In this document: piece by piece, positions 12,936 through 20,699 of the stretch
How the letters are laid out: each line of letters begins with the position of its first letter
Numbering within the stretch: the first letter of the stretch is position 1
DNA from: an uncultured Dehalococcoidia bacterium
Lineage (GTDB): Bacteria; Chloroflexota; Dehalococcoidia; DSTF01; RBG-16-68-14
Reading direction: 5' to 3'
DNA length: 64,000 nt
Assembly (NCBI GenBank): GCA_964406605.1
Contig: CAYOSF010000014.1
Span: forward strand, 5,095-69,094
Made by a program: the position numbers and the translations under genes
Notes under the pieces: model-generated
Databases searched by the model: none
Seen by the model: the letters and a program-made list of their open reading frames with translations, nothing else
What the model was told of the DNA's origin: nothing

Positions 12936-13006
12936 AGCGGCCCCACCGGCCGGGACAGGTCGCCTTCGCGCCTGCTGACGCTCTGGTTTGTCGCCGCCGT
13001 CGCTTG

Positions 13007-13975
13007 TTACCCGGCGCCCGTCCCGCAGTCGTGGCGGTACGAGTCTATCACGTGAAGAATATCGTCAACGAGGATCTGCCCGCTCGGTGGACCCAGCCTC
13101 CACGGCTCCTTTGCCGTCTCCGGGATGGCGGTCCGGTCGTACTTCTCGTCGTAGCCCGGGTCACCCTCTCGCAGGAAGTAGTGGTTCACCAGAAGCAGCA
13201 CGTCGTCGATGCGATTCTTCCCGTCGTTCGTCGGGTTGAAGTAGTCCCACGGGTTGTGCGGGTCACGTCGGCCGCCGAGTTTCTCGTCGAAGCCATTCTC
13301 ATTCACGTCCGGGCAGCCATCGTTGTCGTCGTCCGGATCGGCGCTGTTGGGCACCGTATCCCCGTCCGTATCGCCGTCCGGCGCCTTGGTGGGCATCGGC
13401 GTGGCCGTGGGTCTCGGCGTCCCATCCTCGCACTTGATGACCAGCACATCCGGACCGGACTCTACCTGGGTCGATCCCTTGTCGTCGATGACCAGCGTGT
13501 CAGCTGTGGAGTGTGTCAGGCTGACGCTACCATCTGCATCACATCTGAAGCTGCCTGTCGCGACGACCCCCGTGTACGTGGAGAAGGGTTCGCCAATGCC
13601 GATCGAGCAGCCCACCGACTCCCAATCAGGGCCGTAAGCATTCGCACAAAACAGGCCGTCCGGCCACACCATGTCAATCAGGCCGTTGGGCGTCACACCG
13701 TCGTAGGCAACGGTAACAGCCACGGCTTCGTATGCCCCATTCGGCAGAGCCGAGACACCCTCGAGAATCACCTTGACAGTGAAGTCCGTATCCACAGGGA
13801 TGTAGCACTTGTCGTAGCCGCGGGAGGTGTCACAATCCCCGACGGCTATCGAGAAGTCCACGGCCTCCGTTTGGGCCTCGATGGCGCTCCTGTGTCCCCA
13901 GGTGAAGACCACCACAACCATCACAGCAACGGCCATCACCGCGCCCAGAACCACCAGGTTTCGTCGCGATCGCAT
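13007..13975 (-). CDS. Secreted surface protein with C-terminal Ca-binding dockerin-like (flexitail-type) domain
   Basis: Signal peptide, beta-rich domain, PTATP linker, DTDGDTVPNSADPDDDNDGCPD, GGRRDPHNPWDYFNPTNDGKNRIDD, GPPSGQILVDDIL..HDC. Confidence 0.7.
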   Translation of the reverse strand: MRSRRNLVVLGAVMAVAVMVVVVFTWGHRSAIEAQTEAVDFSIAVGDCDTSRGYDKCYIPVDTDFTVKVILEGVSALPNGAYEAVAVTVAYDGVTPNGLIDMVWPDGLFCANAYGPDWESVGCSIGIGEPFSTYTGVVATGSFRCDADGSVSLTHSTADTLVIDDKGSTQVESGPDVLVIKCEDGTPRPTATPMPTKAPDGDTDGDTVPNSADPDDDNDGCPDVNENGFDEKLGGRRDPHNPWDYFNPTNDGKNRIDDVLLLVNHYFLREGDPGYDEKYDRTAIPETAKEPWRLGPPSGQILVDDILHVIDSYRHDCGTGAG

Positions 13976-14168
13976 GCCACACCTCCCGCCTGCGGTCGGT
14001 GATGGGCTGCCCGCCGTGCGGGACACGCGCCCGCCACTGACCACCAGCTCCGTACGCGGCGATCCTAGCGTGCCAGGGACGGCTTGTCAACAAGCACTTG
14101 TTGCCTACCGGCACAGCTCGTAACGGCAGCCTCGAGGCCGAAGCCTGTGGCTATAGGACAGGATGGCG

Positions 14169-16025
14169 TCACACCACCGCCGGCTCGGCCGTACCGGTAC
14201 CGAATTGGCGCATGAACAGCTCATAGTACCGCCCGCGCGCGGCCATCAGCTCGTCGTGGTTGCCCTGCTCCACCATCACGCCACTCTCTAGGAAGTAGAT
14301 GCGGTCCACGTTGCGGATGGTCGAGAGGCGGTGCGCGACGATGAAGACCGTGCGGCCCTCCATCAGCTCGGCCAGACCATCCAGGAAGTCCGCCTCGGTA
14401 TGGAGGTCGAGGGCGGATGTCGGCTCATCGAGCAGCAGGATCGGCGCGTCCTTGAGGAACGCCCTCGCGATCGAAATGCGCTGCTGCTGCCCAACGGAGA
14501 GCTTGACGCCGCGTTCGCCCACTTCGGTCTCGTACTTGGCAGGCAACTCCTGGACGAACGCGTCGGCGCGAGCCGCCCGGGCCGCCGCCTCAACCGCTTC
14601 CGCACTCGCGTCGAGACGCCCATAGAGGATGTTCTCGCGTACCGTCGCCGAGAAGAGCAACGGCTCCTGCGGCACCATGCTCACCAGGTCACGCAGCGAC
14701 GCGATCTTCAGCCGCCGGACGTCCACATCGTCTATCTCGACCGAGCCGCCCGTGACGTCGTAGAGTCGCGGCATGAGGTTGAGGATCGTCGTCTTGCCGG
14801 AGCCGGTCTCCCCGACAATGGCGATCTTCTCGCCCTTGCGCGCCTCGAAATCGATGCGCTCCAGCACGGGCCGGCCGGCATCGTACTCGAACCGCACCTG
14901 CCGGAAAGCGACGCCGCGCTCCAGGGCGGGCTTCTCGACGGCGTCCGGCGCCTCCCGGATGTCCGGCGTCTCGTCCAGCACCTGGAACGCCCGCCCAACA
15001 CCGACAACAGCGTCCTGGAACGGGCCGTAAACGAACATGATCTGGTTCATCATCTGGTAGATGCTCTGCATGTAGGTGACGAAGACCCATAGAGCCCCTA
15101 CCGTGAGCGGTCCGTCGACGACCCGGTAGGCCGCGAAGAGGAGCACCGATGCCGTACCCAGCCCCGTGATCGCCACGGTGGCCACGTTCAGCACCTGCTC
15201 CGCAAGGCGGAAGCGCAACTGGGCCCGCACGAAGTTCATGCTTGTTCCCGCGAAGCGCTCCCGCTCCCGGCCCTCGCGACCGAAGACCTGCACCGCACGG
15301 ATTGCACCCATCGTCTGCTCGATGAGCGAGGTCAGGCGGCTCATGTGTTCCCGGCTCTCCTGCGAGGCACGCTGGATGCGGCCGGTCAGCCGGTGGATCG
15401 CGAAGAATAGCAACGGCAGCACGCCGAGCGAAACGATGGTGAGCCACGGGTCCAGCAGCAGCATGAGCGCGATCATCACCAGCAGCCGGAAGATCAGCGC
15501 CGACCACGTCTGGACGCCGAAGATCATCACTTCCTGGATGCCGCGGGCGTCGTTGATGGCGCGCCAGATGCTGTCGCCGACCGATTGGCCGGAGTGGTAG
15601 CGAAGCGACAGCGTCCGCATGTGCCCGACGATCCGCGAACGGAGCGTGTGGATCATCAAGAGCGCCGTCCGCGCGATGACGTAATAGCTGCCGGCGTTGA
15701 TCAGCACCCCACCGACCGTGATCGCGAGATACGTCGCCGCCAGCCAGCCCGCTGCCACGAACTTCTCTCTGTTCGTCTGGGTGACCACCTCGCCCAGCGG
15801 CCCCAGGTCCAGCCGGTCGCTGGCAAGCACGCCGTCTATGAGAAACTTGATCGGCCATGGCATGAAGGCGACCAACAGCGAGCCGCACATCAGCAGCACC
15901 ACGCTCAACCCGACGCCGCCACGGAACTCCCCGATGTACGAGATGATCCGGCGGTAGACGTGGGCGACCGGCGCCTCCGTCCCTTCTGGGCCGAGCGGCG
16001 CGTTCGGATCGAACAGGCGAGTCAC
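14169..16025 (-). CDS. ABC exporter, fused permease/ATPase (MsbA-like)
   Basis: About 6 TM segments, GETGSGKT, LSVGQQQRISIARA, LLLDEPTSALD. Confidence 0.95.
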   Translation of the reverse strand: MTRLFDPNAPLGPEGTEAPVAHVYRRIISYIGEFRGGVGLSVVLLMCGSLLVAFMPWPIKFLIDGVLASDRLDLGPLGEVVTQTNREKFVAAGWLAATYLAITVGGVLINAGSYYVIARTALLMIHTLRSRIVGHMRTLSLRYHSGQSVGDSIWRAINDARGIQEVMIFGVQTWSALIFRLLVMIALMLLLDPWLTIVSLGVLPLLFFAIHRLTGRIQRASQESREHMSRLTSLIEQTMGAIRAVQVFGREGRERERFAGTSMNFVRAQLRFRLAEQVLNVATVAITGLGTASVLLFAAYRVVDGPLTVGALWVFVTYMQSIYQMMNQIMFVYGPFQDAVVGVGRAFQVLDETPDIREAPDAVEKPALERGVAFRQVRFEYDAGRPVLERIDFEARKGEKIAIVGETGSGKTTILNLMPRLYDVTGGSVEIDDVDVRRLKIASLRDLVSMVPQEPLLFSATVRENILYGRLDASAEAVEAAARAARADAFVQELPAKYETEVGERGVKLSVGQQQRISIARAFLKDAPILLLDEPTSALDLHTEADFLDGLAELMEGRTVFIVAHRLSTIRNVDRIYFLESGVMVEQGNHDELMAARGRYYELFMRQFGTGTAEPAVV

Positions 16026-16029
16026 AGCG

Positions 16030-17241
16030 TCACCAGTAGGCCAAATCCGTGTACGGCCTGGTCAGCTTCACGTTCAAGTCTCTTGCCGCGCCGATCGGCT
16101 GCCAGTAGATCGGGCGGGCCTCCGTCACCGGCTCGTAGCTCGCGAGCGACTCCACCACCGAAGGCAGGAACTGGAGCGGCGCCATGAGCTGGCCGCGACC
16201 GAGACTGTGGGTCACGCCAATAAGATAGCCGACGAGCCGCGCCATCGCGTCCTCCCGACCCTCCGCGCAGCCGAAGTCCATGAGCGCCGTGTTCTCGATA
16301 ACACGCTTCTCGCCGGTCTTCCTGTGGCGCCAAACCTCGCGCATGTGCTTGCCTTTGTCCCAGAGCCCCGCACAGGCGACGATTCGTCCGCCCTCCTCGA
16401 GCACGTAGTAGTCCTGCCAGCCGTAGACCGGCACCCAGAAGTCCGGCTTTGGCCCCCAGAACGAATCGTCCAGCTTCCCCTGCAGGTGCTCGACGGTATA
16501 GGGGCGGAACAGGTCCAGGCCCCGGTGAGTCCTGTTGATCAGCGCCACGCAGCGCCGGACATCAGATCGACGCGAGGGCCTGATGCCATCGGCCTCGCCC
16601 TCGAAAGGACAACACGCGAAGCAATGGATGCTGGCCGTGGTGCCCCGCCGGCTCCGGCGGCGACGGTAGTAGTACGTGGCCAGGGCCTCCCAGCCCAGGG
16701 CGCGTCGGGGTACCGTGCGCAACAGACGGCCCAGTCCCTGTCCTCTGGCGTCCGTCCGGGTCCTCCATGCCGACTCGATCTGGACGGTGACGCGCTTCCC
16801 CCCGACCAGCGTGTTCCTCGCCGAGTGCACGATCGCCGCCAGGATGGCCCCTCGGTCCTCGGCCACCTGGATGCTCACGTTCTCCTGCAGCCGGAATTGG
16901 GCAAAGGCGTACGGGCTGCGTTCCACCGTCACCTCCCACTCGCCGTCGTTCTCGGGCGAGTGGGCGTAGAGCTCGGCGAGCGCCTCGTCGTCGCCCCACG
17001 TCGCCTCCCGGACCCGCAGCGTGCCGCTGATCAGCCGTTCGCGCCGGTCGAGGTCCCGCTGAATCCTCTTGAGCGCTCCCTGGCCTCGCCTCAGCCAGCG
17101 ACCGACGTCGGCGCGGCGCACTCGGAGCTCGTACGCCCGCTCGAGCACCGGTTCGGGCCAGCCATGCTCTCGCCAGGCTGCACGCACCGCATCCGGTATC
17201 TCCCCCGGCCGCTCGAAGATCGAGCGATCGCCGGCCATCAC
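16030..17241 (-). CDS. Putative tandem GNAT-fold protein
   Basis: LRVREATWGDDEALAELY, acyl-CoA-binding-like WRTRTDARGQGLG, second repeat IRPSRRSDVRRCVALIN...GRIVACAGLWD. GGAGG SD; GTG at 17241 or ATG at 17238. Confidence 0.6.
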   Translation of the reverse strand: MMAGDRSIFERPGEIPDAVRAAWREHGWPEPVLERAYELRVRRADVGRWLRRGQGALKRIQRDLDRRERLISGTLRVREATWGDDEALAELYAHSPENDGEWEVTVERSPYAFAQFRLQENVSIQVAEDRGAILAAIVHSARNTLVGGKRVTVQIESAWRTRTDARGQGLGRLLRTVPRRALGWEALATYYYRRRRSRRGTTASIHCFACCPFEGEADGIRPSRRSDVRRCVALINRTHRGLDLFRPYTVEHLQGKLDDSFWGPKPDFWVPVYGWQDYYVLEEGGRIVACAGLWDKGKHMREVWRHRKTGEKRVIENTALMDFGCAEGREDAMARLVGYLIGVTHSLGRGQLMAPLQFLPSVVESLASYEPVTEARPIYWQPIGAARDLNVKLTRPYTDLAYW

Positions 17242-17259
17242 TTACCTCCCAGGAAACCT

Positions 17260-17290
17260 GCGAGCCCGCCTCCTCAGGAAGCGGGCTCGC
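17260..17290 (-). terminator. 14-bp GC-rich hairpin between the leader ORF and the GNAT-like gene (weak U-tract)
   Basis: Minus strand GCGAGCCCGCTTCC-TGA-GGAGGCGGGCTCGC followed by AGGTTT. Confidence 0.5.
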
Positions 17291-17314
17291 GCAATCTACT
17301 CTATGTAACTTCCG

Positions 17315-17410
17315 TCAGAAACGCCCGCTTCGTCCCCAGTCGCCACCGCTCCGGCCGCATGGAACCAGCAACCGTGGGCGTGGGTGGGAGTACCTTGAGC
17401 CATCTGCCAT
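17315..17410 (-). CDS. Candidate 31-aa leader or precursor peptide MADGSRYSHPRPRLLVPCGRSGGDWGRSGRF
   Basis: GAGG SD 7 nt before ATG, directly downstream of a TTGACG-N17-TAGGAT promoter; below the ORF-track cutoff. Confidence 0.45.
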   Translation of the reverse strand: MADGSRYSHPRPRLLVPCGRSGGDWGRSGRF

Positions 17411-17436
17411 ATCGATACCTCTTAGCGTGCTCCACT

Positions 17437-17465
17437 ATCCTACGCGGAGCATGGCCGCTCGTCAA
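17437..17465 (-). promoter_or_regulatory. Sigma70-like promoter
   Basis: TTGACG (17465-17460), 17-nt spacer, TAGGAT (17442-17437). Confidence 0.6.
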
Positions 17466-17510
17466 GTGCGCGATCTGCCGACCGGCGACGACCGACGCGA
17501 GTTCTGCGTC

Positions 17511-20363
17511 TCAGGCTGAGCCCGTCTGCGCGACAAGTGCTCGACTGCCTGATGCCGGGCGAGGCCGCCTGTTCTCTCCCAGCTTCTGGACGTCCACGCG
17601 CACCGCCCGGTCCACCGGCGTCGGCTGCCACTGCAGAGGCCAGTAGCGTAGGTGGCCGTAGCCGCCCGCCAGGTGCAGCCACTTCACCATCCCCGGCTCC
17701 ACGTCCATCGAGCCCCGCCAGCCCCGGAACTGGTACGGGTCCCAGCCGTTGTAGCAGATCACCTGCCCCGGCCTGACCGAAGGCGATAGCTTCACCGGTA
17801 CCAGGAAGTCCCCCGCATCGTTGTAGACCCGCACCTCCTCGTCGTCCTCGATGCCCCGCGCCTGCGCGTCCACCGGGCTCATCACCAGGTGCGGCCGTCC
17901 CCGGTGCGTCTGCAGCAGCATCCGGTTCGCGATGTTGATGGAGTGGATGCTCCAGCGGTTGTGGCCTGAGGTCATGGCGAAGGGGTAGTCGCCGCCCATC
18001 TTCGGGTTCTCCTTGTGGGTGGGGAACCCCTCGCCCGCCTCCAGGAACCAGGGGTGGTCGATGTAGAACTGGGCGCGGCGGGTGAGCGTCGGGTACGGCA
18101 GCTTCTTCTGGGTGTGCCAGGTCGAGTGGACGAATGTCTCGTCCGGCTTGATGTCGCTGGCTTGATTCGCGTCCATTACGGAAAGACCCAGGTGCGTGAA
18201 GCGCCGGTATCCATCTCTTTTCAGCGTTGACAGCGTCGTGTCCTCCGGCAGGGATCCGGCGGCAACACCGTCGCGCACCATCTCGCCGGCCATCCGCTCC
18301 TCCGTGGCAAGGGCGCCCCCTAGCGTGAGTTGGTCGTGCAGTCCCCGCAACGAACGGGCATTGCCCTGGCCGTCGGCGTACTCCTTGAGACCTCGCGCTC
18401 GTGCGCGCTGTTCCAGCTTCGTGGCCAGGAGCAGTGATATCTCCCACTCGGTCTTCGCATCGCCCGGCGGCTTCGCCGACTGCTCCGTGTGGATGAGCAA
18501 CAGCATGTGGGGCGTCGACATGTGGAAACCCGACGACTCGTACTCGTTGGCTACAGGCAGCACGATGTCCGACCAGCGCGCCGTGGTGCTCATGCGCCAA
18601 TCGAGTGTCACCACTTTGTTCAGCTTCGGCCACAGGTGGCGCAGCAGTTGTGTCCCTCCCCCGCGCACCCGCCGCAGGGTGTTGCCGGCGACATTGAACA
18701 GCACGCGCGGGCGGGTCTTCGGCGCGGGCCGGGCGACGCCTTGCCACCACCCCTTGTCCACCGCCTCCCGGAAGTACTCGTCGAAGGGACGCTTCATGGC
18801 GGGGTCGCCCCACTCGCGGTTGTTCCATCGCTCGCGGTAGCCGCAGTGGTGGTACCAGAAGAATGCCGGCGGGATGAGGAGGAGGCTCCCCGCAGACGCG
18901 GCCCGGCAGGCCATCTCGATGCCCGCCATCTCCTCGGTCCAGGTGGTATCGGCGCTCTTCACTTCGGCCAGCATGTTCGCGTAGACGCCCAGGACCGTCT
19001 TCGTCGCGCGCCGGCCCGGCCGGCCCTTCCGGGCCACGATGCCGGGCCCGTCGAAGAAACCCACGGACCAGCAGCCCACTCCTGTCCCCTTGCGCCCCCA
19101 GTTTCCGGTCAACCCGAGGAGCAGGAGGATCGACCGAAGCATCAGGTCCGCGTGGTAGTACTTGAGCGACGTGCCGCCCGCCCAGACCTGCGTCCGCTTC
19201 TGGGCCGCCTTACGCCCCAGCGACCGTATCGCATCCGGATGAACGCCGCAGATCTTCGAGGCCTTCTCCGGTGTGTAGCTGCGGTTCAGATGCTGCCGCA
19301 GCAGCTCGAACGCAGACGCGACCGTCACCCGCGAGCCGTCCTTCAGACGCACGCGGTGCCGTCCCTCCAAAGCCGGCTTCACCTTCCCCCACCGCAGCGT
19401 TCCCTTTGGTGCGGCCGCCAGGCGGCGCTTCTCCGTGTCCCAGGCATAGAACTGCTCGTCCGAGCCGCCTTCCTTGAGATCGGATTCCCGCAGGAATCGC
19501 CCGGTATCGAGACGCACGAGCAGCGGGAGGTCCGTCTGCTCCTTCACGAACCGCTCGTTATAGATTCCCTCCTCGATGATCACCTGCGAGGCGGCGAGCG
19601 CCCAGGCCGCGTCGGTCCCCGTGCGCACCGGGTAGTAGTAATCGGCCTGGATGTGCGATGGGCTGCAGTCCGGGGCGAACAGCACAACCTCTGTCCCCTG
19701 GTAGCGGGACTCGACGGTGTAGTGCGACGTCGCGATGACGGTGTAGACCGGATTGGCCTGGAATATGATCAGAAGCTCCGTATGAAAGGCATCGTCCAGG
19801 CTGCTGCAGACGTTGAACTTGCCGAAGGTGAGGTAGATGCCCGGGCTGAAATCGTTGATCTCCGCGTTGACGTCCGTCGTCAGGCCGCCGAGCATGTTCA
19901 TCAGCCGCCCGTGGCCGGAGCCGGTCCACGTGCCGCCCTCGGCGCCCATCGCGGTGATGATCGACTCAGGCCCGACCTCCTCGATGGCGTCGAGCAGCGC
20001 GTCTGCGACCTCGGTGACCGCCGTGTCCCAGGAGATCTCCTCCCACTTCCCTTCACCCCGCTTGCCCACGCGTCGGAGTGGGTGAAGCACCCGCTCCTGG
20101 CCGTACAGAGTGCGGCTCCAGGCCACGCCCTTCTGACAGCCCATCGGGTTGTAGTCCGGCACGCCCTCCTCGATCATCTTGAACGTGCCGGCCTGCTCCT
20201 CCCGCACGACCTTGCCGTCGCGGACATAGACGCGCATCGGGCAGTTGCCGGGGTAGCAGTCGACGCAATGGGTCCCCCAGTGGACCTCATCCCAGGACCA
20301 CCTGTCACGGTAGGCATCCGTCCACGACCCCGCTGCACCTCGCCCTCTGACTCGCGGTTTCAT
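17511..20363 (-). CDS. Type II DMSO-reductase-family molybdoenzyme alpha subunit (EbdA/S25dA-like), paralog 2, orphan
   Basis: WGTHCVDCYPGNC...YNPMGCQKG, DVNAEINDF, KYYHADL, YPTLTRRAQFYIDH, GHNRWSIH. Start trimmed to MKPRVRG after GAGGAGG; no Tat motif. Confidence 0.93.
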   Translation of the reverse strand: MKPRVRGRGAAGSWTDAYRDRWSWDEVHWGTHCVDCYPGNCPMRVYVRDGKVVREEQAGTFKMIEEGVPDYNPMGCQKGVAWSRTLYGQERVLHPLRRVGKRGEGKWEEISWDTAVTEVADALLDAIEEVGPESIITAMGAEGGTWTGSGHGRLMNMLGGLTTDVNAEINDFSPGIYLTFGKFNVCSSLDDAFHTELLIIFQANPVYTVIATSHYTVESRYQGTEVVLFAPDCSPSHIQADYYYPVRTGTDAAWALAASQVIIEEGIYNERFVKEQTDLPLLVRLDTGRFLRESDLKEGGSDEQFYAWDTEKRRLAAAPKGTLRWGKVKPALEGRHRVRLKDGSRVTVASAFELLRQHLNRSYTPEKASKICGVHPDAIRSLGRKAAQKRTQVWAGGTSLKYYHADLMLRSILLLLGLTGNWGRKGTGVGCWSVGFFDGPGIVARKGRPGRRATKTVLGVYANMLAEVKSADTTWTEEMAGIEMACRAASAGSLLLIPPAFFWYHHCGYRERWNNREWGDPAMKRPFDEYFREAVDKGWWQGVARPAPKTRPRVLFNVAGNTLRRVRGGGTQLLRHLWPKLNKVVTLDWRMSTTARWSDIVLPVANEYESSGFHMSTPHMLLLIHTEQSAKPPGDAKTEWEISLLLATKLEQRARARGLKEYADGQGNARSLRGLHDQLTLGGALATEERMAGEMVRDGVAAGSLPEDTTLSTLKRDGYRRFTHLGLSVMDANQASDIKPDETFVHSTWHTQKKLPYPTLTRRAQFYIDHPWFLEAGEGFPTHKENPKMGGDYPFAMTSGHNRWSIHSINIANRMLLQTHRGRPHLVMSPVDAQARGIEDDEEVRVYNDAGDFLVPVKLSPSVRPGQVICYNGWDPYQFRGWRGSMDVEPGMVKWLHLAGGYGHLRYWPLQWQPTPVDRAVRVDVQKLGENRRPRPASGSRALVAQTGSA

Positions 20364-20699
20364 CTCGCCTCCTCTCAAGCCACCGGCGGCCCGTCTCCGA
20401 TGCCACGCACTCCGCCGGCGTGGCGCGATGACGGCCCAAGGGTAGTGATTTTGCTCTGCGGCGTCAAACGGCGCGAACGATGAAGCGGCAGGCGGCATAC
20501 GGCCAGACATCACGCCGAGTGCCGCCCATATCAAAGCGAAACCCCGTTGCCGGCACGCTGGCTGGATGAGCTCGCGCGCCACGGATGCCGGCCTTCTAAC
20601 GCATTTGCCCGCTGGTCGAGCGCCTGCTATAGCACTCGCAGACCCCATTCAGCCTCGCCATTGACCGCGTTGGTGGGGCAGGGGTACCCCACGAAAGGA

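Follow-up and report, generated by a model that had tools for sequence, protein, structure and literature searches.

Why should an open reading frame (ORF) of only 31 codons and a hairpin stand between a promoter and a two-gene operon in an uncultured Dehalococcoidia bacterium? The question is raised by a 64,000-nt stretch of contig CAYOSF010000014.1 (the window hereafter), in which all of the features concerned, namely the small ORF, the hairpin, a gene for an acyltransferase-like enzyme and a gene for an ATP-binding cassette (ABC) exporter, lie on the minus strand. A preliminary description of the locus read it as a leader-peptide attenuator and offered, as an alternative, a precursor peptide that the downstream pair modifies and exports. 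Leader-peptide attenuators are textbook regulation, and they have been mapped almost entirely in Proteobacteria, Firmicutes and Actinobacteria. Here, we report a comparative sequence analysis according to which the element is probably a ribosome-dependent leader-peptide transcription attenuator of the leader ORF–acyltransferase-like–ABC exporter operon, and is closest to the bmrB–bmrCD system.

The elements proposed for the leader, that is, a promoter, a GAGG Shine-Dalgarno sequence, the 31-aa ORF, a 14-bp hairpin and a 9-nt complement, were all recovered at the positions given for them on the minus strand (Table 1). The promoter was also returned by a pattern scan, with 9/12 matches; the scan found two promoter-like sites in 13500-18500, compared with a mean of 0.6 (sd 0.8) in shuffled sequences. 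Within the final leader codons lies the strand GAAGCGGGC, which a repeat finder gives as 100% complementary over 9 nt to positions 17286-17278 of the hairpin 5' arm. The hairpin itself (5' arm 17290-17277, loop 17276-17274, 3' arm 17273-17260) starts 24 nt past the leader stop and is called by the repeat finder as a 15-nt inverted repeat with 93% complementarity. The two helices exclude each other, as had been claimed: in the transcript 17430-17276, which is cut before the 3' arm, GAAGCGGGC pairs with GCCCGCUUC in a 9-bp helix in both the minimum-energy and the centroid folds, and in the full sequence with the 3' arm the terminator hairpin wins over the antiterminator. This behaviour is expected of a kinetic terminator/antiterminator switch. 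Across the leaders described below, the mean energies are -17.3 kcal/mol for the duplex of antiterminator and arm and -23.1 kcal/mol for the hairpin. A conserved upstream partner of the antiterminator strand (an anti-anti-terminator) was not found when duplexes within the ORF were compared with shuffles (mean z +0.27), so the design appears to have three segments. The pairing is also rare by chance: when the whole genome was scanned for stems of at least 10 pairs with a complement of the 5' arm 12-75 nt upstream, a perfect 9-mer complement occurred in eight of 2454 hairpins, the window hairpin included.

Table 1. Positions of the leader elements and of the two structural genes in the window
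Feature	Position	Strand	Details
Sigma-70-type promoter	17437..17465	(-)	-35 TTGACG 17465-17460, 17-nt spacer, -10 TAGGAT 17442-17437
Shine-Dalgarno AAGAGG	17418..17423	(-)	7 nt ahead of leader ATG (17410)
Leader ORF MADGSRYSHPRPRLLVPCGRSGGDWGRSGRF	17315..17410	(-)	31 codons + TGA (17317-17315); direct sequence reading
Antiterminator strand GAAGCGGGC	17323..17331	(-)	Within final leader codons; end 5 nt ahead of stop codon
Putative terminator hairpin GCGAGCCCGCTTCC-TGA-GGAGGCGGGCTCGC	17260..17290	(-)	14 pairs including one G-U
Tail AGGTTTCCT: weak U-tract, then Shine-Dalgarno GGGAGG (17250-17245) of first structural gene	17244..17259	(-)	
Tandem-GNAT acyltransferase-like gene, 402-403 aa	16030..17241 (start 17241/17238)	(-)	Unannotated family; predicted fold like that of N-myristoyltransferase (NMT)
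ABC exporter gene, 618 aa	14169..16025	(-)	Fused transmembrane and ATPase domains, MsbA-like; start 4 nt past acyltransferase-like stop

The arrangement recurs ahead of homologous genes. Homologs of the 402-aa protein were found in 13 of 41 related genomes, at 28 loci in a species-representative genome collection (according to their record titles, from Dehalococcoidia or Chloroflexota, from Acidimicrobiia and from a few other groups) and at 45 more metagenome loci. Upstream of many of these relatives stand TTGACA-N17/18-TAGGAT, an ORF of about 30 codons, a spacer, a hairpin of the form (A/G)GCCCGCTTCC-loop-GGAAGCGGGC(C/T), a tail of the kind AGTGTTTT or TAGTAGTTTT and finally a Shine-Dalgarno sequence; the tail of the window is homologous to these tails with their GGGGG/GGAGG. 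An alignment of 25 non-identical leaders, covering the final nine codons and the sequence onward to include the tail, was used to build a covariance model of this 3' part. Full-length forward-strand matches were obtained in 30 of the 74 sources that encode enzyme homologs (29 at E <= 5.1e-10 and locus L028 at E 0.0087), 25 of them being training rows that match by construction; the other 44 sources gave no match. All 30 matching loci come from uncultured Dehalococcoidia or Chloroflexota, or from metagenome contigs. In a quick maximum-likelihood tree of the enzyme the leader-bearing genes cluster, the leader label requiring four changes, a value as low as which was seen in 0 of 500 shuffles. 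In this tree the window enzyme falls together with that of locus L021 and with one of the two tandem copies in locus L049, namely the second. L049 and L057 are adjacent ranges of one metagenome contig: L057 holds a leader and an enzyme gene, and L049 a second leader, two tandem enzyme paralogs and then the exporter. Since the second L049 paralog is the closest relative of the window enzyme apart from L021, the window operon may descend from a two-enzyme operon such as that in L049.

Both the promoter and the geometry of the leader are kept. A promoter of the form TTGACN / 16-18 nt / TANNNT, with at least 9/12 matches, lies upstream of all 24 curated leaders, and its -10 box is TAGGAT in 15 of them. 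The start codon of the leader ORF lies 21-30 nt past the -10 box in 14 cases, 13 of which have a Shine-Dalgarno core, and 6-10 nt past it in 10 cases, which are apparently leaderless. The antiterminator strand stands two codons ahead of the stop, within the ribosome footprint of the stop codon, in 25 of 25 aligned leaders, and 17-27 nt separate the stop from the hairpin. In the same alignment 85.7% of the cells of the terminator stem are paired, compared with at most 51.1% in slid controls, and six of the 14 pairs change on both sides (29 cells), a level that none of 500 shuffles reached. The antiterminator helix (columns 13-24 with 58-69) is paired in 79% of cells against at most 48.7% in slid controls; standard pairing at its six core positions is seen in 21-25 of 25 rows (84-100%), and five of its 12 pairs change on both sides (seven cells), with a covariation score that was reached by one of 500 shuffles. 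The arm CCCGTTTCC, which occurs in L026, L059 and L061, is met by the antiterminators GGAAGCGGGC, GGAGACGGGC or GGAGGCGGGC, all of which pair with it; in L059, the combination of arm CCCGTTTCC and antiterminator GGAGACGGGC constitutes a G-C to A-U change. Compensatory changes upstream of orthologs, for which the preliminary description had suggested looking, are thus present in both helices, and the orthologs supply 24 leaders with an ORF and 25 with an antiterminator. The attenuator reading gains support from this, as promoter, ORF length, antiterminator position and terminator are kept across diverged loci and the peptide is not.

The question then becomes which entity is conserved, the peptide or the RNA. 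The 24 homologous leader ORFs have 27-34 codons, and over their 728 codons the three frames contain 0, 29 and 13 stops, a comparison that is partly circular as frame 0 was defined as the ORF. When the 24 peptides are aligned, only Met1 and one Gly are invariant and the mean column identity is 27%; conservation of the peptide at orthologs, for which the preliminary description had also suggested looking, was not found. The central antiterminator codon (AGC, CGC, CGT, GAC or GGC) encodes S, R, D or G while its pairing is kept, so the conserved feature behaves as RNA and not as peptide. Proportions of nonsynonymous (pN) and synonymous (pS) differences were compared in 11 close leader pairs, of which the six with equal lengths were scorable. 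In four of the six, pN and pS are about the same (0.26/0.23, 0.24/0.28, 0.39/0.39 and 0.28/0.39), and one further scorable pair has three differences in all (0.03/0.05). The peptide sequence thus seems to drift almost neutrally. As judged from these alignments, translation to a fixed point appears to be conserved and the peptide product does not, which fits a regulatory leader and argues against a precursor peptide. The codon adaptation of the window leader is 0.457, at the 1.6th percentile of 31-codon windows from the genes of its own genome, versus 0.71 and 0.75 for the two structural genes; such poor adaptation is compatible with a tuned default state or with mere absence of selection.

How would such a leader work? 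We infer translation of the ORF, termination of transcription at the hairpin and a decision on read-through by the state of translation, in the following manner. Transcription would start at the TTGACG-N17-TAGGAT promoter, and because GAAGCGGGC is transcribed first, the antiterminator helix could form before the 3' arm of the hairpin exists. The antiterminator strand has its end 5 nt upstream of the leader stop and would be covered by a ribosome that pauses or terminates there; the terminator, because it begins 24 nt downstream, would be left free. With a ribosome that keeps pace with the polymerase, the more stable terminator would form and the operon would be off. With a ribosome that lags, is stalled early or never initiates, the antiterminator would pair with the 5' arm, the terminator would be blocked and the two structural genes would be read. 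In an E. coli study, the ribosome is reported to repress terminators that lie a few bases past a gene, and terminators placed farther away to work again (PMC4824070). The 24-leader peptide alignment shows neither enrichment of any amino acid nor a run suited to trp/his-type sensing; the natural signal would therefore more plausibly be a general slowing of translation, for example by ribosome-targeting compounds, than a shortage of a single amino acid.

Among known systems, the nearest parallel is bmrB, the leader of B. subtilis bmrCD, which has been dissected experimentally; efficient translation of bmrB results in termination, slowed translation in read-through, and rare codons tune the default (PMC4191407). 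The likeness consists in a translated small ORF (here predicted) ahead of an ABC exporter operon, in an intrinsic terminator opposed by a weaker antiterminator and, for the window leader, in poor codon usage. The bmrB leader encodes 53 aa, contains its terminator inside the coding region and has a predicted anti-anti-terminator (PMC4191407), whereas the present ORFs are of about 30 codons and contain the antiterminator strand only, their terminators lying 17-27 nt past the stop, and a search for a third helix found none. The two also differ in that there is no sequence similarity, the phylum is another and the first regulated gene is acyltransferase-like. The leaders of vmlR (PMC9226507) and msrD (PMC10314930) are comparable in that attenuation that reportedly responds to ribosome state precedes resistance-type functions. 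Behind the geometry described here stand acetyltransferases, a methyltransferase and an exporter, which may be compared with genes of the resistance type; unlike those leaders, the present ones do not encode peptides conserved as arrest peptides usually are. The trp and his leaders of E. coli have runs of cognate codons and four segments, and in them a lack of translation leads to termination (PMC4191407). The present leaders share with them a leader peptide and alternative terminator and antiterminator hairpins that would be read by ribosome position; they differ in having no enriched amino acid, three segments only and downstream genes that are not biosynthetic.

The first of the regulated genes encodes a protein without an annotated family. 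At least 349 homologs were found at E <= 1e-5; all 120 of those listed are unnamed or 'hypothetical', and none has a Pfam domain on record. The GNAT label given to the enzyme in the preliminary description is based on its predicted fold, a tandem GNAT, and on Pfam matches that are all sub-threshold (17.9 and 17.6 bits versus cut-offs of 25 and 27). No NCBIfam match was obtained and no Pfam NMT family at E <= 0.01; a profile search of PDB sequences gave at best an insignificant match, with the C-terminal portion of an FNR-type regulator (E 1.3), and the ESM Atlas returned generic GNAT clusters only. An AlphaFold2 (AF2) model computed on an alignment of 81 sequences has a pLDDT of 93.1. The top Foldseek matches to this model are all NMTs (E 1.9e-14 and weaker, TM 0.53-0.59, about 10% identity). 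VIA-align, which is independent of Foldseek, places 2p6e_A first with Z 21.9 and a root-mean-square deviation of 4.1 over 312 residues (model 43-402 against chain 66-455), followed by 8fbt_B (Z 20.2) and then MAB_4324 (17.1), Eis-type proteins (13.8-15), MshD (14.3) and FemX/FemA (12-13).

Like the eukaryotic NMTs 2p6e and 8fbt, the modelled enzyme is a tandem GNAT pseudo-dimer that aligns to the very C-terminus and carries an R-x-x-G-x-G acyl-CoA-type motif in the first lobe (RGQGLG at residues 165-170). It also has a fixed C-terminus, YW in 81 of 81 aligned family members; in NMT the C-terminal carboxylate acts in catalysis. Unlike NMT, it is bacterial, shares only 10-12% identity, has no Pfam, NCBIfam or PDB sequence match, bears an extra N-terminal helical segment and has an exporter as its neighbour. 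As sequence comparison connects it neither with NMT nor with a solved structure, we name the enzyme NMT-like in its predicted fold and do not call it an NMT. Residues 1-72 are modelled as an N-terminal four-helix segment (16-24, 29-37, 42-51 and 53-71) with conserved Trp27 and Trp48, which lies outside most of the structural matches. Prokaryotes are reported to lack endogenous NMT activity (PMC2852408). Our open-access keyword searches returned no description of bacterial NMT-like enzymes or of this leader family.

The second gene encodes an exporter with the Pfam domains ABC_membrane and ABC_tran, which resembles MsbA-type half-transporters and scores below every curated cut-off. In 30 of the 74 sources, 16 with the leader and 14 without it, the start of an ABC homolog lies at most 140 nt past the enzyme gene; many of the other 44 are too short downstream to judge whether the exporter is present. 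Most of the titled records in which the pair occurs without the leader are from Acidimicrobiia. When at least 470 exporter residues are aligned, the exporter is 69-77% identical among leader-bearing loci, compared with 49-55% for the enzyme. Since the pair is found without the leader and the exporter is more conserved than the enzyme, the pair appears to be older as a functional module, to which the leader was apparently added for regulation in Dehalococcoidia. Both proteins may, as was suggested earlier, serve in drug or metabolite detoxification.

The same design is also found ahead of other genes. In a search of 93 genomes of the order, the covariance model gave matches at E <= 0.01 in 20. 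Full-length matches stand ahead of genes for class I S-adenosylmethionine (SAM) methyltransferases on contig C3 of the same genome and in L099, L101 and L102. In these methyltransferase leaders the strand GGCAG(C/T)GGGC lies just ahead of GAC/GGC-TGA, the hairpin follows 21-24 nt past the stop and the arm duplex is computed at -23 to -27 kcal/mol. On contig C3:266607-266706 (-), which corresponds to the L118:1500-1600 region, a TTGACA-N17-TATCAA promoter precedes a 21-codon ORF, MNGRAIIGRLLVGLCCWAVGD; the antiterminator GGCAGTGGGC stands directly ahead of GAC-TGA, the hairpin 21 nt past the stop, and the gene of a 271-aa class I SAM methyltransferase follows. Further matches lie ahead of genes assigned by Pfam to Acetyltransf_3 GNAT proteins (L114, L104, L105 and L113) and to zinc-ribbon plus adenylate/guanylate cyclase proteins (L115, L106 and L107); among these, L105, L113 and L115 are weaker matches and less clear-cut than the methyltransferase family. 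On contig C6:135819-135846 (+) there is a hairpin, GAGCCGCCCCGAGAGGTCGGGGCGGTTC, with the tail CCTGTTTTCTGAGG and a perfect 9-mer complement two codons ahead of the stop of a longer upstream gene; the complement sits within that gene, there is no mini-ORF, and the downstream gene begins MPIRAVVFDLWGTL. The design of a stop-proximal complement may therefore extend beyond leader ORFs. A much wider proposal would be a translation-surveillance regulon throughout the Dehalococcoidia lineage, in which several modifying enzymes are placed under the pace of the ribosome (the NMT-like acyltransferase with its MsbA-like exporter, the SAM methyltransferase, RimJ/AAC-like acetyltransferases and adenylate cyclase, the mini-ORF often being leaderless) and in which the NMT-like enzyme is a true acylating counterpart of NMT in prokaryotes, its lipidated product being exported. 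We regard this proposal as conceivable and doubtful.

Several observations weigh against the attenuator reading. Its off state assumes that transcription and translation are coupled in this lineage. In the window the tail past the stem offers only AGGUUUCCU, a short U run, the hairpin is not listed by a consensus terminator scan, and the folding energy of the whole leader is unexceptional (z -1.03). A scripted count of the tails gave relatives a maximum of 4-7 T per 8-nt window in 17 of 25 rows, having mis-trimmed four of the 25, the row of the window included. The double changes in the antiterminator helix are thin, at only seven cells, because the arm is nearly invariant. Some constraint on the peptide may exist as well: the close pair L052/L054 has pN 0.01 versus pS 0.13, from four differences, and by eye there are weak peptide features beyond the RNA pairing, namely His near residues 6-12 and Pro near 12-15. 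Finally, L021, the closest enzyme ortholog with DNA in hand (75% identity), has a leader that is built differently. At L021:3125-3290 (+) a promoter is followed by an extended stem of about 100 nt closed by GGGCCCGCUUGC/GCAAGCGGGCCC and then by U7, with a minimum free energy of -85.1 kcal/mol (z -3.95); this leader lacks a stop-proximal antiterminator and has no match to the covariance model. It appears to be a different, possibly derived, regulatory structure.

Could the two helices be set not by the ribosome but by another factor (a small ligand, an RNA-binding protein or a tRNA, for instance), with the ORF being incidental? Two mutually exclusive helices are all that the data strictly establish, and open frames of 30 codons are frequent in high-GC DNA. 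However, Rfam 15 gives no match at E <= 1 in 13000-19000, and tRNA is the sole match in seven related loci. The sequence from promoter to antiterminator is not conserved, so no aptamer-like core is visible, and the comparison with shuffles revealed no upstream partner of the antiterminator strand. The frame of the ORF, its start beside the promoter or a Shine-Dalgarno sequence and its fixed stop position are, in contrast, all conserved. We consider a switch of this kind unlikely.

The alternative offered in the preliminary description was that of a cluster for a ribosomally synthesized and post-translationally modified peptide (RiPP) or a secreted peptide, in which the NMT-like enzyme would modify the peptide, the ABC protein would export it and the hairpin, as a partial terminator, would fix how much precursor is made relative to enzyme. 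In gene order the locus, with its small ORF, hairpin, enzyme and exporter, does resemble many RiPP operons, the exporter gene directly follows that of the enzyme, and the length of the peptide is constant at 27-34 aa. The nearest folds to that of the enzyme are, moreover, peptide N-acyltransferases, the two NMTs scoring Z 21.9 and 20.2 compared with at most 17.1 for other tandem GNATs. The peptide itself does not behave as a precursor, though: no leader or core is conserved in it, with Met1 and a single Gly as the sole invariant residues at 27% mean column identity, pN about equals pS in four of the six scored pairs, and its sole conserved stretch varies in residue (S/R/D/G) where the RNA pairing is kept. 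NMT substrates typically begin with Met-Gly, and the leader peptides do not. Pfam shows no RiPP-type domain in the enzyme, where NCBIfam agrees, and no peptidase domain in the exporter. The enzyme-exporter pair occurs at 14 loci, those with names mostly Acidimicrobiia, that have neither a match to the leader model nor a CCCG[CT]T-type hairpin, other small ORFs at these loci not having been searched exhaustively; conversely, leaders of this geometry stand ahead of lone methyltransferase, GNAT and cyclase genes without an exporter. A precursor peptide is thus disfavoured, and we hold it to be quite unlikely.

The hardware of the attenuator might also be run with the opposite logic, the ribosome dwelling at the leader stop through release, recycling or a C-terminal arrest, so that slow termination would mean off and fast release on. 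The antiterminator does lie within the footprint of a ribosome at the stop in every one of the 25 leaders, and the peptide ends in Pro, after which translation termination is slow, in eight of 24. Against this, the final residue varies (V 8, P 8, others 8) and is Phe in the window peptide, and all three stop codons are used (TGA 14, TAG 8, TAA 2), which makes this variant decidedly improbable in our view. The weakest explanation, an ordinary terminator or mRNA-stabilising hairpin, perhaps one that ends read-through from the upstream oxidoreductase gene, with ORF and complement there by chance, could appeal to the frequency of GCCCGC-type stems in the genome (98 GCCCGC...GCGGGC hairpin-like sites) and to the whole-leader fold at z -1.03, but is scarcely credible given the rarity of the complement (8/2454 hairpins) and the retention of complement, promoter and ORF in 24-25 loci whose neighbouring sequence has diverged beyond alignment, a divergence that also argues against recent copies of one mobile sequence. 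A leader-peptide attenuator that responds to the pace of the ribosome along the ORF remains the reading that we prefer.

The surroundings of the leaders provide some further observations. In the window, the upstream neighbour (17511-20648) encodes a molybdopterin subunit of the DMSO-reductase type II / ethylbenzene-dehydrogenase-like kind. Directly after the ABC exporter gene, at 14062-14090 (-), there is a second promoter-like site, TTGACA-N17-TAGGAT, with 10/12 matches, and behind it, at 13007-14044 (-), a 345-aa ORF with the flexitail surface-protein domain NF041520 (E 4.6e-25); the unusual -10 box TAGGAT is common to this promoter and that of the leader. At other loci (L023, L024, L025, L052, L054, L058, L060, L065 and L083) the same-strand neighbour upstream of the leader ends with the conserved motif ...GHIPFELDD..E..IHG.DERVS.ENL..., and a neighbour of this type, which we take to resemble an M20-type peptidase or deacylase, also lies directly upstream of leaderless paralogs in L035, L039, L071 and L076.

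Palindromes of the form (A)CTGACA-N5-7-TGTCA occur in L050, L051, L053, L062, L063, L065, L066, L082, L022, L024, L026, L027, L092 and L102, in the interval from terminator to enzyme gene or a short way ahead of the leader promoter, the one in L102 being beside a methyltransferase leader. From their placement they look like the operator of a shared transcription factor. As an operator for the window, TGACA-N5-7-TGTCA was rejected: it is absent from the window, and three copies were found in the genome where about 3.5 are expected. Short tandem repeats (CGTACCT-type heptamers and CCCTTGAC-type units) flank some leaders, lying upstream of the promoters in L056 and L027; in L051 repeats are situated between the terminator and the enzyme gene, along with two copies of a GCCGCGGGTTTCAACCCGCGG hairpin.

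What the small ORF and the hairpin appear to represent, judged by comparison of the loci, is a new family of a known kind of regulator, found in uncultured Dehalococcoidia and recurring ahead of several enzyme genes. The family is without an entry in curated RNA libraries, and it is an unusually clear case of an ORF that is kept while its peptide drifts. The geometry that its members share marks genes that are putatively switched on when translation falters, and may thus be a lead to stress or antibiotic responses in these bacteria. It also points to an unannotated enzyme family with a predicted NMT-like fold, which in two phyla is closely linked to an exporter of high conservation.

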